Of a stretch of DNA of 64,000 nucleotides, positions 2,326 to 9,900 are shown piece after piece. Position 1 is the first letter of the stretch; every line of letters starts with the position of its first letter. A model generated the notes under the pieces. It was not told where the DNA came from. It ran no database searches and saw nothing but the letters and a program-made list of their open reading frames with translations. Location of the stretch: positions 160,001 to 224,000 of the forward strand of contig CAZQNA010000002.1 of the NCBI GenBank assembly GCA_964594835.1, written 5' to 3'. The stretch comes from an uncultured Nitrososphaerota archaeon (GTDB lineage Archaea; Korarchaeota; Korarchaeia; Korarchaeales; Korarchaeaceae). The translations under genes were made by a program, and so were the position numbers.

Positions 2326-4824
2326 ATGAGGATCGGCGCCTCGGCGTCGCTCCTCCTCGCCGCCCTCCTGCTGGCCTCAGCGATTCCTCAGGCCGTCTCG
2401 GCCCCTCCGGGCGGTTACTGCTCCGGTCGGGTGCTCTACGACCTGGCCCACCGCGAGTCCCTCGGCAGGTACACCGACGGAATGGACTGCGGGATCTCGG
2501 TCCCGGAGCTCCTCGAGGAGTGGGGCTGCTCCGTCGATCTGAACCACGAACCCCTTGATCAGGTCAACCTGAGCCAATACGACCTCCTGGTGATATACTC
2601 TCCCTGGGAGGAATTCAGCCCGGCTGAGAGGGCGGCCATAGAGGAGTACGTGAGGCGAGGGGGGAGCCTCCTGCTGCTGGCGGACACCCAGTTCCACTAC
2701 GGGAACCGGGCCCCGAACCAGGTCGCCGGGGAGTTCGGCGCAGGGTTCGACGGGGACGAGGTTGAGGCCTGCCGGATCTCCGCGCCATACCACCCGATCG
2801 CCTTCGACCTAGACGACGGGGACCTCTTCAACCCCTTCCTGCTGTGGGACGCCTACGTGAACTCGACGCCGAAACAGGCCGAGGTGGTGGTGAGGTCGCA
2901 GCCCGGGGCGAGGGCGCTGGCAGCGGCCGGGAACGAGTCCATCAGGGCACTCGCGAAGTCGGGTGGGTCGCTCATGGCAATGGTCGCCTTCAGGCACGGA
3001 CTCGGCAAGGTGGTGCTGGGCCCGAGGAACGGGCTGGGCCAGCCCACGGGAGGGCCGTGGTACAACAGGCCGGGCGAGGAGAACCGGGTCCTGGCCGCGA
3101 CCGTCAAGTGGCTCACGGACAAGGACTCGTGGCTGGTGAGGCTGATCTACGACTACTTCCCGGTGCTCATGTTCTCTCGGGGGGAGAGGTGGTACCCGAC
3201 AAGCTTCTACTTCGACGGCGATGCCGATCTGATGAACAACTACGAGAACTACCACGAGGGGGCGCCCTACTACGTTTACGTGCACGTGGCGAACGCGACG
3301 ATAGTCTACAGGGACAACTGCAGGTGGGTAGGCGCTCCGCAGTGGTCGCCCCCGCGGTGCGACGTCGTGGAGAGGGAGGGGATAGCCGTGGAGTACTGGT
3401 TCTACAGCGTGTACAACTACCACCCCGGAAGAATTATTGTTGATAAGGATGTTCACGAGCACGAGTGGGAGAGCGTCTTCGTGTTCTTCACAAACGAGTC
3501 TGGTCAAATGGTTCCCGTCGGCGTGAGGTACAACAGGCACAAATGGCCGAGGTCGGTCTCTTGGGACGACTTGCGAGAGTACGGCGCGCTTGTAGATGAC
3601 ACCCACCCAATAGTTCATGTCGCCAATGGGTCTCACGCGTCCTATGCGCCGTTTGAATCAAGTCGGTTTGATAAGTGGTACCCAGGAGGTCTTATTCTCT
3701 CTTGGGAAGACTTGGGCGACACTTTGAGCATGATTTTAATGCACGCGCGGAAAACCGAGGTTCCGGGGTCAGGAAAGCTTTACTGCGTCCCATCGCCACT
3801 TGGCCGGTTTTGTACGTGGGTAACTAAGTGGAAGGTCATGCATGAGACTCTCAATGGGTCGACACAGTCAGAGATGAAAAGTAAAGGTCTCTGGCTCGAT
3901 AAGTTTGTAGGGAATAACAGTGAGAAGGTTGGTTGGCTTTACTGGTACCTCTCTGCACCATGGGCGAGAGAAGCTTGGAGCCTTGCTGAACTCAACCTGG
4001 GATACCAGCCGGTCAGGCTCAACTTTTTCGTTGCCTGTCCTGTCGACCTCCACATCTATGACCCGCTCGGCAGGCACGTCGGCCTCAACTACACGACCGG
4101 GGAGCTGGAGCTCCAGATCCCGAATGCCACCTACGAGGTCTCGGGGAACGTCACGCACGTGATGATCGACTGGGCGATGGACGGAGAGTACAGGATAGAG
4201 CTCGTCGCTAGAGGAAGTGGGAATTACACATTCCTTGCGGTCGAGTCCGTCGGCGGGGTCGTGACCGACTACGTCGTGGAGACTGGCAACGTGACCGAGG
4301 GAGAGAACATAACCTACAAGTTCTCGACCGCAAATCTCAACGCCACCCTGAGCTTCCTGCCTGGAGAGGTGAGGCCGAGGATGCCCACCCTGGCGAACGT
4401 GACGCTGGTGAACTCCGGGACCGTGAACATCACGTGGGTCAACGTCACTCACCTCCTGCCTGAAGGATATGTCAGGTACGTGGATCACGCATCCGCGTTC
4501 TTGGAGGTCAACGGATCAGTCTACCTGATCCACCCCAGGGACGTGCGAGTGGAGGCCGAGGGTAGCGTCGTGAGGGTATACCTGAACTTCACCTCCGGCG
4601 TGAGGCTCATCGGGCCGGGAGGGGTGAGGGAGATTCACGCCCTTGAGCCCGGCTGGGTCCTGAGGCTGTACTACCTCATTAGGCCAAGTGGATACGTAGA
4701 ACCTGGGAGCCACGAATCTACGGTTATAGTGGAGTACCTTCAGGAGTTCACTGGGGCCATGGCGAGCAGGCTCTCCACTGCGTCTGCGGAGCTGATGGTG
4801 AGGTCAGGGAGGTGGTGCCCTTAG
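2326..4824 (+). CDS. Secreted multidomain protein: GIFT/DUF4350-like N-domain, central Vps62/NPP1-like domain, C-terminal Ig-like region
   Basis: Signal peptide; VLYDLAH..YDLLVIYSP..FSPAE..AI..YVRRGGSLLLLAD; YWFYSVYN..HEHEWE..HPIVHVANGSHASY; CPVDLHIYDP.GRHVG; many N-x-S/T sequons. Confidence 0.8.
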   Translation: MRIGASASLLLAALLLASAIPQAVSAPPGGYCSGRVLYDLAHRESLGRYTDGMDCGISVPELLEEWGCSVDLNHEPLDQVNLSQYDLLVIYSPWEEFSPAERAAIEEYVRRGGSLLLLADTQFHYGNRAPNQVAGEFGAGFDGDEVEACRISAPYHPIAFDLDDGDLFNPFLLWDAYVNSTPKQAEVVVRSQPGARALAAAGNESIRALAKSGGSLMAMVAFRHGLGKVVLGPRNGLGQPTGGPWYNRPGEENRVLAATVKWLTDKDSWLVRLIYDYFPVLMFSRGERWYPTSFYFDGDADLMNNYENYHEGAPYYVYVHVANATIVYRDNCRWVGAPQWSPPRCDVVEREGIAVEYWFYSVYNYHPGRIIVDKDVHEHEWESVFVFFTNESGQMVPVGVRYNRHKWPRSVSWDDLREYGALVDDTHPIVHVANGSHASYAPFESSRFDKWYPGGLILSWEDLGDTLSMILMHARKTEVPGSGKLYCVPSPLGRFCTWVTKWKVMHETLNGSTQSEMKSKGLWLDKFVGNNSEKVGWLYWYLSAPWAREAWSLAELNLGYQPVRLNFFVACPVDLHIYDPLGRHVGLNYTTGELELQIPNATYEVSGNVTHVMIDWAMDGEYRIELVARGSGNYTFLAVESVGGVVTDYVVETGNVTEGENITYKFSTANLNATLSFLPGEVRPRMPTLANVTLVNSGTVNITWVNVTHLLPEGYVRYVDHASAFLEVNGSVYLIHPRDVRVEAEGSVVRVYLNFTSGVRLIGPGGVREIHALEPGWVLRLYYLIRPSGYVEPGSHESTVIVEYLQEFTGAMASRLSTASAELMVRSGRWCP
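4525..4824 (+). repeat. 3' segment of the 832-aa gene, duplicated at ~7355-7657
   Basis: LIHPRDVRVEAEGSVVRVYLNFTSGVRLIGPGG...RLSTASAELMVRSGRWCP vs LIHPRDLRVEPEGGVVKIYLNFTSGVKLIGPGG...RLSTASAKLVVRARGRCWP. Confidence 0.9.
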
Positions 4825-5540
4825 GCCTCAGGGACATGTGGCTGGAGCTCAGGGCCGAGCTGGAGGGGATGGAGAGGGTCGCGCTGGCCGGATTCTTGGG
4901 CCCGGCGCTCATCCTGGCCTTGGTTGCGATCACCGACCCACTGGCCTTCCTCCTCACACCATTCCCACTGTTTCTGGCCTCTCTGGCCTCTAGAGAGAGC
5001 GACAGGACCGGCCCGGCCATAGCGCTGGGAGCCCTGCTAGGATACCTGCTGCTGACGGCCTTCTCCCTCTCCCCCCTCTACCCTCCATTCTATCGCTGGG
5101 TGAACCGTGGCGCCCCGGCGCCCAAGGTGGAGAGCATCCCCCTCTCCTGCAGGGTCTGCTCCCCATCCCTCTTCGCGCTACTCTGGGCGTTCGCGGCGTA
5201 TATCATAATCGCGCTTGAGGCGGTCCCCCTCCTGGCAGCCTGGGTCGCCCTGTCCGCCTACCCCGCCTATATCGCCAGGTCCAGGTTCAGGCGCGTGCCG
5301 AGGCTCCTGCTCATCATGTACTCCCTGACCCTCCTCGGCAACGCCCTGGCCTGCGCACTCTGCCTCCCCGTGTGGCTCGAGGAGCCCCCTCTCTTCTCGG
5401 CGCTGGCGGCCCTGGATCCCGCCGCCTCCGTCACCCTGGCCGCAGCCTGCCTGTGGAGGGCTAGGAATGGGGGAGGTCAGGACCTGCTGGCGTTCCTGAC
5501 GTTCTACTCGCTGATCGGCACCATAAGGTGGTTGATGTGA
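4812..5540 (+). CDS. Paralogous integral membrane protein, array copy 1 (start may be ATG 4836)
   Basis: Multiple TM segments; family motifs MWLELR, DRxGPAIALGALLGYL, SPLYPP.YRW, CxxC, AYPAY.ARSRFRRVPRLLLI, GGG.DLL.FLTFY. Confidence 0.85.
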   Translation: MVPLGLRDMWLELRAELEGMERVALAGFLGPALILALVAITDPLAFLLTPFPLFLASLASRESDRTGPAIALGALLGYLLLTAFSLSPLYPPFYRWVNRGAPAPKVESIPLSCRVCSPSLFALLWAFAAYIIIALEAVPLLAAWVALSAYPAYIARSRFRRVPRLLLIMYSLTLLGNALACALCLPVWLEEPPLFSALAALDPAASVTLAAACLWRARNGGGQDLLAFLTFYSLIGTIRWLM

Positions 5541-5599
5541 GCGCCTGGACATTCCTCTCCCGCCGTGGCGAGTCTCTGCGCGATCGACCGCTTTCACGC

Positions 5600-9124: not shown

Positions 9125-9186
9125 ACTCCCGAATGTCACCGGAGTTCCCCTTGAGAGTGAGGGGAGGTGGTGTAAGCATCAGAGAG

Positions 9187-9900
9187 ATGTGGCACGAGCT
9201 CAGGGAAGAGGTCGGCGGCCCCACGATCTGGGTGGTCTTCGCGGGGGCGCTTGGACCCCTAGCGGTGGGCCTGGCGCTGGGCATGTCCTTTTGGCTGGGC
9301 ATCCCCCTTTCCCCTCTCCCCCTCGCCGTGGCCTCGGCCGCTGCCAGGGTGAGCGACAGGTCTGGCCCGGCCATATCTTTGGGCGCCCTGCTGGGCTACC
9401 TGCTTGTGATCGCCCTCATGGCCTCTCCCCTCTACCCTCCTCTGTACGAGTGGGCGGTGAGCGGCTATCAGCTAGCCCCTTCCGTGAGGGGAGTTCCTCT
9501 CTCCTGCAGGGCCTGCTCCCCACCGCCATTTTTCTTCCCCATGCTGAGCCTCCTGTTGGCGTATGCTTGCTCTTACCTCGGGCTGCTTCTAGCTGCTGCC
9601 TGGCTGCTCGTATCATCCTATCCTGCGTATGTCGCCAGATTCAGGTTCAGGCGCGTGCCCAGGCTTCTCTTGATAGCGTACGCATCGGCCCTCGCAATAG
9701 ACTCCTGTCTCTCAGCATCTTGCGCCTCAACCGGATGGATGAGATACGCCCCATGGCTCTTGGCCGTGAGTTCAGCTCTCGATGCTACGCTGGCCGTAGC
9801 CTGCCTATGGAAGGCTCGGAAGGGAGGCGGCAGGGATCTCCTAACCTTCCTCACGTTCTACCTCCTCTCAGGGAGCGTGCTCCGCTACTGGTGGTGGTGA
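9187..9900 (+). CDS. Paralogous integral membrane protein, array copy 6
   Basis: MWHELREEVGGP.. closest to copy 3; ends YWWW. Confidence 0.85.
   Translation: MWHELREEVGGPTIWVVFAGALGPLAVGLALGMSFWLGIPLSPLPLAVASAAARVSDRSGPAISLGALLGYLLVIALMASPLYPPLYEWAVSGYQLAPSVRGVPLSCRACSPPPFFFPMLSLLLAYACSYLGLLLAAAWLLVSSYPAYVARFRFRRVPRLLLIAYASALAIDSCLSASCASTGWMRYAPWLLAVSSALDATLAVACLWKARKGGGRDLLTFLTFYLLSGSVLRYWWW

Follow-up and report, generated by a model that had tools for sequence, protein, structure and literature searches.

The present work is concerned with a tandem gene array in a 64,000-nucleotide (nt) stretch of DNA (positions 160,001 to 224,000 of contig CAZQNA010000002.1, assembly GCA_964594835.1; hereafter the window) of an uncultured archaeon of the Korarchaeota lineage, the members of which appear to have exchanged segments with one another. 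Six open reading frames (ORFs) of 229-266 codons lie between positions 4812 and 9900 of the plus strand, downstream of a gene for an 832-residue protein, and can be aligned end to end; a truncated seventh copy extends the array to 4812-9970. In the whole genome (1.82 Mb in 24 contigs), the six copies and this remnant are the sole members of their family. All six are complete frames with start codons and a coding-like GC content at third codon positions (GC3) of 0.73-0.86. Five conserved nucleotide blocks, namely the junction with the preceding gene together with the first codons, GPAIALGALLGY, SPLYPPFYRW, AWV.LSAYPAYVARSRFRRVPRLLL and CLWKA.GGG..LL.FLTFY, set apart the strongly diverged cassettes B, D and E, whose types are numbered below.

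2326-4824, plus strand: gene of the 832-residue protein, its stop codon overlapping the start of c1
4790-4893, plus strand: conserved junction, made of GGTGAGGTCAGGGAGGTGGTG, with which the preceding gene ends, and the first ~25 codons
4812-5540, plus strand: copy 1 (c1), 242 residues, cassette types B1-D1-E1
5794-6483, plus strand: copy 2 (c2), 229 residues, a divergent subfamily with ~50% nucleotide identity to all other copies
6587-7312, plus strand: copy 3 (c3), 241 residues from the ATG, frame open from 6521, types B3-D3-E3
7313-7657, plus strand: duplicated 3′ end of the 832-residue gene, an open frame of 114 codons, its stop overlapping the start of c4
7645-8364, plus strand: copy 4 (c4), 239 residues, types B4-D4-E4
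8375-9124, plus strand: copy 5 (c5), 249 residues from the GTG at 8375, frame open from 8336, types B4-D5-E1
9157-9900, plus strand: copy 6 (c6), ~247 residues, start uncertain, frame open from 9100, related to c3 at both ends
9911-9970, plus strand: truncated seventh copy, first ~20 codons only (VVALGLRDMWLELRAELEG)

The junction, with its ~25 codons, recurs before c1, c4 (7623-7726), c5 (8353-8456) and the remnant (9889-9992), whose homology is lost at a run of six T (T6) at 9968-9973; unequal crossing-over is likely to occur at this junction. Copy c2 is devoid of the SPLYPPFYRW loop and of part of block D.

The sequence-only reading had described the copies as nucleotide mosaics, and the three identical blocks on which it had drawn are exact in position and length. 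Copies c4 and c5 agree in 76 of 76 positions (8439-8514 = 7709-7784), c5 and c6 in 31 of 31 (8591-8621 = 9391-9421) and c1 and c5 in 128 of 128 (8911-9038 = 5339-5466), in each case with not one base more on either side. The first and the last of these blocks are the perfect cores of longer shared tracts:

7640-7805 = 8370-8535, plus strand: tract shared by c4 and c5, 166 nt, 90% identity, with the 76-nt core
8810-9076 = 5238-5504, plus strand: tract shared by c1 and c5, 267 nt, 14 differences, with the 128-nt core and both edges sharp

Overall nucleotide identity amounts to 76% for c1-c5, 76% for c4-c5, 72% for c1-c4, 66% for c3-c6 and 60% for c5-c6. When similarity was followed along the alignment in sliding windows of 60 nt, c5 was 95-100% identical to c4 in columns 60-180, where c1 reached only 49-65%, and 90-100% identical to c1 in columns 480-720, where c4 reached 72-83%; at the 5′ end (88-91%) and in most of columns 240-360 (82-88%), no two copies are closer than c1 and c4. 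Copy c5 is the clearest mosaic of the array. In this line, four nucleotide repeat families inside the ORFs are common to four to six copies, and windows of 75-97% identity alternate with others of 29-57%. The 5′ and 3′ ends common to c3 and c6, which had also been pointed out from the sequence, are real but modest, with an identity that is high at the ends only (84-85% over the first ~90 nt, 92% near column 180 and 76-80% near the 3′ end) and falls to 38-57% through most of the middle, c3 having a c1/c4-like middle inside a c6-like frame.

Shuffles of polymorphic columns (2000 permutations, p values over all pairs unless stated) revealed 90 concordant polymorphic sites in a row between c1 and c5 and 55 between c4 and c5, both with p ≤ 0.0005, and a weaker signal for c3-c6 (p = 0.033). 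The 31-nt block of c5 and c6 (a run of 18 sites) had a pairwise p of 0.0015 but reached only 0.32 over all pairs and, because the stretch is conserved in all copies, does not by itself go beyond chance. For c2, no signal of recombination with any other copy was detected in these permutations. Triplet tests (20,000 permutations), which included the full copy gA of the related genome G001, gave p ≤ 5 × 10−5 each for c5(c4,c1), c1(c4,c5), gA(c4,c1) and c4(gA,c5), p = 0.004 for c3(c6,c1) and p = 0.23 for c6(c3,c5). A column-shuffle null is blind to regional conservation, and therefore two controls were added, synonymous divergence (dS) by block and approximately unbiased (AU) tests of block trees. 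Between c4 and c5, dS is 0.08 in block B versus 0.71-1.06 in blocks A, C, D and E; between c1 and c5 it is 0.12 in block E versus 0.57-0.93 elsewhere; between c1 and c4 it is 0.17 in block A versus 0.5-2.6 elsewhere, and between c4 and gA it ranges from 0.08 to 1.49 across blocks. Since the silent divergence of a single pair of copies itself varies about tenfold between blocks, protein constraint cannot account for the mosaic. Maximum-likelihood trees for blocks B and E were built from ten sequences (gA and three metagenome copies besides the six of the window), with four partial sequences left aside (gB of G001, a partial c5-like copy, the remnant on metagenome contig L013 and the remnant of the window). 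The block B tree pairs c4 with c5 and c1 with gA, whereas the block E tree pairs c1 with c5 and c4 with gA; block B data reject the E tree with p = 2.7 × 10−9 and block E data reject the B tree with p = 1.7 × 10−7, block C being weakly informative in these tests. Congruent block trees, which had been named beforehand as the outcome that would speak against exchange, were not seen.

Other assemblies hold the same cassettes in other combinations. Among 40 relatives searched, the family was found in one genome only, G001, of the same genus, where the order is the tail of an 832-residue homologue, the full copy gA, a 28-codon tail fragment and a copy gB cut by a stop. Together with proteins of further assemblies (P numbers) and metagenome contigs (L numbers), the following combinations were obtained:

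B1-D1-E1: c1 and the copy on L010
B1-D1-E7: P0007
B1-D4-E4: gA, P0006 and P0008
B4-D4-E4: c4
B4-D5-E1: c5 and the copy on L012
B3-D3-E3: c3, the copy on L011 and P0005

The orthologues of c4, gA and P0006, have block B1 in place of B4. In this regard, gA is c4-like at columns 330-780 (82-98%) and c1/gB-like at columns 60-180 (68-81% identity to c1 versus 54-71% to c4), and P0006, a protein of another assembly, agrees with c4 in 93-100% of amino acids over alignment columns 100-260, with a block B of the c1/gB type (86-100% versus 27-46% to c4). The longest recorded contigs of P0006 and of P0019, a homologue of the 832-residue protein, are equal in length (12,093 nt); should the two proteins share one contig, block B of c4 would have been exchanged recently. 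P0007 joins B and D cassettes of c1 type to a C-terminal cassette (E7) found in no other sequence. The orthologues of c3 are P0005 and the copy on L011; those of c2 are P0011 and a copy on L012 with 94% amino acid identity. L012, an independent contig of the Joint Genome Institute (JGI), carries an orthologue of c5 with 93-100% identity at columns 150-480, the same c4-type block B and the same c1-type start of block E.

Gene order differs as well. On L012 we find the end of c1, a c2-like copy, a 36-codon tail fragment and a c5-like copy; on L011 a c3-like copy, a tail fragment and a degenerate copy missing ~95 codons; and on L013 a truncated c3/c6-like remnant adjoining unrelated genes. The degenerate copy of L011 (1106-1326) matches family residues 1-33 and then 129-180 in another frame, and is probably decaying after an internal deletion or a frameshift. 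Contigs of two further sequencing runs, X5 and X6 (90-99% alike), contain the joints 5545>7562 and 7303>4796 and the mixed contigs 8602>5053 and 8653>6891, although metagenome joints of this kind can come from other organisms; their lack of contig cover at 7838-8410 and 8602-9174 was not counted as absence. In run X1, a contig common to c1 and c5 spans 5251-5504 at a depth of 27.1, about the sum of its neighbours, and the next c5 contig, from 9047, has exactly two other letters, as many as there are c1/c5 differences within 9047-9076. The c1-identical tract of c5 would then extend to 9076 in X1 instead of 9038, and its edge would be polymorphic. Differences in copy number and gene order are contig-level evidence, seen between datasets and not within one, and contigs drop rare variants. 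Because related genomes and metagenome contigs have other cassette combinations and gene orders, shuffling of both appears to be continuing.

A segment between the first CxxC and W..LSAYPA (block D) had been called hypervariable from the sequence, and part of it low in GC. Its limits in four copies are:

5166-5240, plus strand: block D of c1
7981-8055, plus strand: block D of c4
8720-8812, plus strand: block D of c5
9523-9600, plus strand: block D of c6

Both observations stand. Non-orthologous copies are only 29-53% identical in the nucleotides of block D, which is the random level, with indels and differing lengths, and in c2 the preceding loop differs too. Within 7985-8045 GC is 0.443 versus 0.652 for the window, at the 1.7th percentile of 61-nt windows. 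The whole block D of c4 has a GC of 0.49 and a GC3 of 0.60, versus a GC3 of 0.70-0.94 in the other blocks of c4, and the block of gA has 0.44 and 0.56, respectively. Low GC3 is confined to these two, and the other block D types are much less affected (GC 0.56-0.72). A different history of the c4/gA cassette may be behind this composition, and is the sole explanation offered.

Between orthologues, block D keeps a nucleotide identity of 82-86% (c4-gA), 81-89% (c3-L011), 97-100% (c5-L012) and 69-79% (c1-L010). Pooling of five orthologous pairs gave 27 non-synonymous and 20 synonymous differences in block D, a ratio of non-synonymous to synonymous differences per site (pN/pS) of 0.50, and 160 and 185, respectively, in the rest of the gene (pN/pS 0.33), a difference between block and rest that is not significant (Fisher p = 0.16). 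The non-synonymous share of block D (27/47) lies below the neutral expectation of 73% (p = 0.02). For the corresponding ratio of substitution rates (dN/dS), values of 0.8-1.1 were obtained in paralogue pairs and 1.7 for c4-gA (nine non-synonymous and two synonymous changes). Positive selection on block D was rejected as not demonstrated, the pooled pN/pS of 0.50 being below neutral. Because each type is conserved between orthologues, the diversity of block D is made up of old cassette types that are re-assorted, and not of ongoing hypermutation.

The gene preceding the array encodes a secreted-looking protein, whose N-terminus is hydrophobic and signal-like and whose C-terminal part is rich in beta structure and has many NxS/T sites. 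Its N-terminus has GIFT-, DUF4350- and GldG-like matches, all below the curated Pfam cut-offs and that to GldG weak, and a search of PDB sequences with the profile of the protein retrieved only a weak match to the GIFT domain of IFT52 (E = 0.011). Residues 347-473, where the sequence reads HEHEWES, match NPP1 below cut-off (E = 0.0066), and no Pfam, NCBIfam or PADLOC domain was found in the C-terminus. An AlphaFold model of the whole protein was unusable (mean predicted local distance difference test, pLDDT, 38), and a complex prediction of residues 560-832 with c1 had a score of 0.00, uninformative either way. Only eight relatives exist among 5.8 × 10^9 proteins, and the protein is lineage-restricted. 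One of its homologues, P0019, is 94-98% identical over residues 1-350 and only ~50% at residues ~450-550, and the protein is therefore polymorphic. This variable part is central and not C-terminal; the tail is conserved between assemblies (79-90% amino acid identity).

The 3′ end of this gene is also found inside the array, where 7356-7647 is 85% identical to 4526-4817, the last ~290 nt of the gene. Pieces of the same 3′ end occur in the window (7313-7657) and on L011 (777-1115), L009 (1320-1403) and L012 (1023-1130), each directly 5′ of a family copy, and the piece of the window and its L011 counterpart begin with the same non-homologous ~14 codons. Compared with the tail of the parent gene, the fragment of the window has a dN/dS of 0.31, and compared with its L011 counterpart one of 0.34; open frames of this kind (dN/dS ~0.3) could have a function, or could result from repeated conversion from the intact gene. 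Termination of transcription in archaea takes place at oligo-T. From 2326 to 9900 only two runs of five T (T5) are present on the plus strand, the next T6 runs being at 9968-9973 and 10163-10168; in the whole window the plus strand has only 11 runs of at least T5, and the two T6 runs stand just behind the array, where they may be operon terminators. Because this T-run pattern fits oligo-T termination, the 832-residue gene and the array are probably co-transcribed as one unit.

The reading that we favour, with a probability of about 0.85, is that the mosaic was made by general homologous recombination, with tandem paralogues exchanging sequence at their conserved blocks. Cassettes would have moved from copy to copy by gene conversion, which would account for the internal tracts, and by unequal crossing-over at the conserved junction, which would lead to gain and loss of copies and to tail fragments, and recombination would also have altered copy number and gene order. 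Exchanges would start and end in conserved blocks or stop at the edge of diverged sequence, tracts ending where homology ends, and the enzymology would be a RadA-type recombination. In the window, the sharing concerns block B of c4/c5, block E of c1/c5 and the 5′ end of c1/c4. As to direction, c5 may have been the donor of block B to c4, given that gA and P0006, the orthologues of c4, have a c1-type block, and c1 the donor of block E to c5. In this regard, the proposal of the sequence-only reading that copies recombine between conserved blocks is borne out by tract edges that fall in those blocks or at the edge of a diverged cassette, by dS, by the AU tests and by the other combinations found elsewhere.

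Several points weigh against this view. The transfer directions rest on few orthologues, and the dS and AU controls cover c1, c4 and c5 and not the weaker c3/c6 and c5/c6 signals. The evidence comes from contigs only, and linkage across the 76- and 128-nt blocks was not seen directly in single molecules. The sequencing runs listed included no RNA dataset. Distinct D cassettes persist despite exchange in their flanks, and selection may keep this diversity, which would go beyond plain concerted evolution. Finally, the 3′ end of the upstream gene within the array recalls toxin-immunity loci and, by that analogy, could point to a purposeful repertoire.

Were the mosaic a chimera of the assembly or of mixed strains, the exchanges would be artefacts. 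The assembly is in 24 contigs with 2.8% estimated contamination, short-read assemblers can switch paths at identical blocks as long as these (76 and 128 nt), and the sequencing runs that served as cross-check are available as Logan contigs (k = 31), not as raw or long reads. Eleven runs from five studies hold part of the stretch, and four runs from two studies hold 0.89-0.95 of the sampled words. In the contigs of X1 and X2, which come from different studies, 15 of the 16 listed pieces are identical to the window and one has two other letters, and every unique stretch is repeated without difference; the contigs end ~30 nt inside the shared blocks (7738/7755, 8468, 8852, 9047 or 9009, and 9392/9420), because contigs of k = 31 must break there. 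By our reasoning, a k larger than 31 would make the 76- and 128-nt repeats nested (c1 ... c4 c5 ... c5) and leave one linear path, and the array lies inside a 249-kb contig. Moreover, c5 is still c1-like ~100 nt to the left of the 128-nt core (90-93%), and c4 and c5 are still alike beyond the 76-nt core; because copies stay alike outside their perfect cores, a switch of path at the cores would not create the pattern. The same B4-D5-E1 start on the independent JGI contig also speaks against a chimera, which is a very improbable origin of the mosaic.

The sequence-only reading had likened the copies to antigenic-variation cassettes that generate new specificities, and this part of it was not supported. 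In a programmed system of that type, donor cassettes would overwrite, at high frequency, the single copy that is expressed, as the segmental tracts of 76-267 nt between copies and the c1/c5 tract edge that differs between datasets (9076 in X1 versus 9038) might suggest, but the six frames are complete, with start codons and high GC3, next to one truncated remnant and no silent donors. The mosaic build of c5 is stable enough to recur on an independent metagenome contig (93-100% identity), and the D blocks of orthologues are conserved. A scan of 12 neighbouring ORFs revealed no recombinase, transposase or reverse transcriptase, and the genome (97% complete) has no match to RVT_1. Such a programme is hardly credible here, and the locus bears no sign of a dedicated diversification machine. 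A diversity-generating retroelement was likewise discarded, given the lack of RVT_1 in the genome and the conservation of D blocks between orthologues. A selected repertoire is a different proposal, modelled on the TspA-TsaI and EsaD-EsaG loci of Staphylococcus aureus: the copies would be membrane immunity or partner proteins for the polymorphic secreted-looking protein or for the variants of competitors, and recombination would renew the repertoire. It would fit the architecture of the locus, where the gene for a large secreted-looking protein overlaps, stop to start, the first of a string of paralogues, all of them polytopic membrane proteins and none identical to another; the 3′ fragment of the large gene inside that string, with further ones ahead of gB (G001) and of the c5-like copy (L012); the ~50% identity of P0019 in the central part; and D cassette types that stay distinct while each is conserved. 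Yet no toxin domain was recognised (the NPP1 hint is below cut-off and central, not C-terminal), the duplicated C-terminal tail is conserved and not polymorphic, the neighbours scanned include no secretion-system genes, and PADLOC and NCBIfam gave no match. The proposal, which draws on architecture only, is unlikely. By the same analogy, it is rather improbable that the locus is an archaeal counterpart of bacterial polymorphic effector-immunity loci, with the membrane string acting as immunity or receptor-masking partners of a secreted protein that has a strain-variable central domain. Within the favoured reading of general recombination between paralogues, selection favouring new combinations may have a part.

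The family itself is undescribed. Neither the six copies nor their distant relatives match any Pfam, NCBIfam or PADLOC family; matches to DUF6057 and Vps55 were dismissed as chance-level, below cut-off (E 0.04-0.08). A word-indexed search of 5.8 × 10^9 proteins retrieved 12 members, those of the window included, one of them labelled ‘hypothetical protein, Candidatus Korarchaeota archaeon’, and a profile search of 1.84 × 10^9 cluster representatives retrieved eight, four of which are distant, lysine-rich and largely without the CxxC motifs. The family was found only in a few high-GC, Korarchaeota-like vent archaea, and the runs that hold the stretch include a hydrothermal vent metagenome. The GC of the window, 65%, equals that reported in the cited part of PMC12787533 for the ‘Marine-VI’ clade of Korarchaeota, a likeness in GC only. 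Hydropathy profiles show six hydrophobic stretches with room for 6-8 membrane spans; the third stretch is a long one, and block D, directly after the first CxxC, forms its first half. An AlphaFold (AF2) model of c4, built with 17 sequences, is all-helical (pLDDT 84.3; predicted template modelling score, pTM, 0.83). Altogether, the family is predicted to be an undescribed all-helical multi-pass membrane protein of ~240 residues. With the c4 model as query, Foldseek gave no match in the PDB at E ≤ 0.001; in VIA-align, the highest Z among 48,161 chains was 5.7 (4g1t_B, root-mean-square deviation 5.2, 118 aligned residues), which is the background for helical proteins; and the best score in the ESM Atlas was 0.79, with no lead. 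For the predicted helical membrane fold, the PDB searches run thus gave no solved counterpart. Literature searches yielded no paper on the family, which is nameless and hard to search for, and none on gene conversion within a gene array of Korarchaeota.

As for the surroundings, NTP_transf_2 plus HEPN genes (270-1056, minus strand) and HepT plus Polbeta-type MNT genes (10188-11100, plus strand) flank the locus, nucleotidyltransferase/HEPN-type pairs being present on both sides. In G001 the array is followed by other genes, an unannotated ORF of 74 codons and a large one of 311 codons. The region looks like a variable island. No tRNA genes were found within 1-30000, which gives no hint of an integrated element from that side. 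Further downstream (16433-25012), an ORF of 2859 residues with 11 DUF11 repeats and DUF7507, CARDB and related Ig-like domains is presumably a giant surface protein.

The kind of phenomenon described here is known; what is undescribed is the gene family, a very narrowly distributed membrane-protein family that the array defines. Should the copies prove to be linked in function to the secreted-looking protein, this would be an indication of antagonism or recognition between cells in Korarchaeota. In the antigenic variation of Neisseria pilE/pilS and Borrelia vlsE, one expression site is supplied by silent truncated donors. The array resembles these systems in the segmental, non-reciprocal-looking transfer of short tracts bounded by conserved sequence, and differs from them in having no single expression site with silent donors and in cassettes that are stable across populations. 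A closer likeness in layout is offered by the lpl cluster of S. aureus, a tandem lipoprotein-like cluster that, in the cited part of the work of Tsuru & Kobayashi (2008, PMC2568036), recombines at conserved stretches within the ORFs: in both cases we find same-strand tandem paralogues with conserved nucleotide stretches inside the ORF as recombination sites, 5′ and 3′ variable parts with conflicting phylogenies and a cluster rearranged between strains. Here, in contrast, the products are multi-pass membrane proteins of an undescribed archaeal family, and several conserved blocks take the place of a single central one. A conserved unit of the lpl type (3′ part, spacer and next 5′ part) was looked for and not seen; for instance, the 5′ type that comes after a c4-type 3′ end is not the same in G001 as in the window. 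The strings of esaG and tipC immunity genes, as described in the cited part of Garrett et al. (2022, PMC9484751), consist of paralogues that recombine at nucleotide blocks of high similarity, with changes in sequence and copy number, and the same source describes 3′ fragments of tspA within a string of polytopic tsaI genes. The array shares with these loci a string of non-identical paralogues behind a secreted-looking protein and recombination at similarity blocks, and with TspA-TsaI the 3′ fragment of a large gene within the string, here the tail of the 832-residue gene. Unlike those immunity loci of the type VII secretion system, it comes with no such system, no recognised toxin domain and no evidence of immunity, in an archaeal host, and recombination is strong, whereas little was found for tsaI in that part of the source. 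For Korarchaeota, recombination has so far only been speculated on from base composition in the cited part of PMC12787533. In bacteria, gene clusters are well known to evolve through recombination of tandem paralogues at conserved blocks, and the array provides a clean and statistically strong example in an uncultured archaeal lineage.

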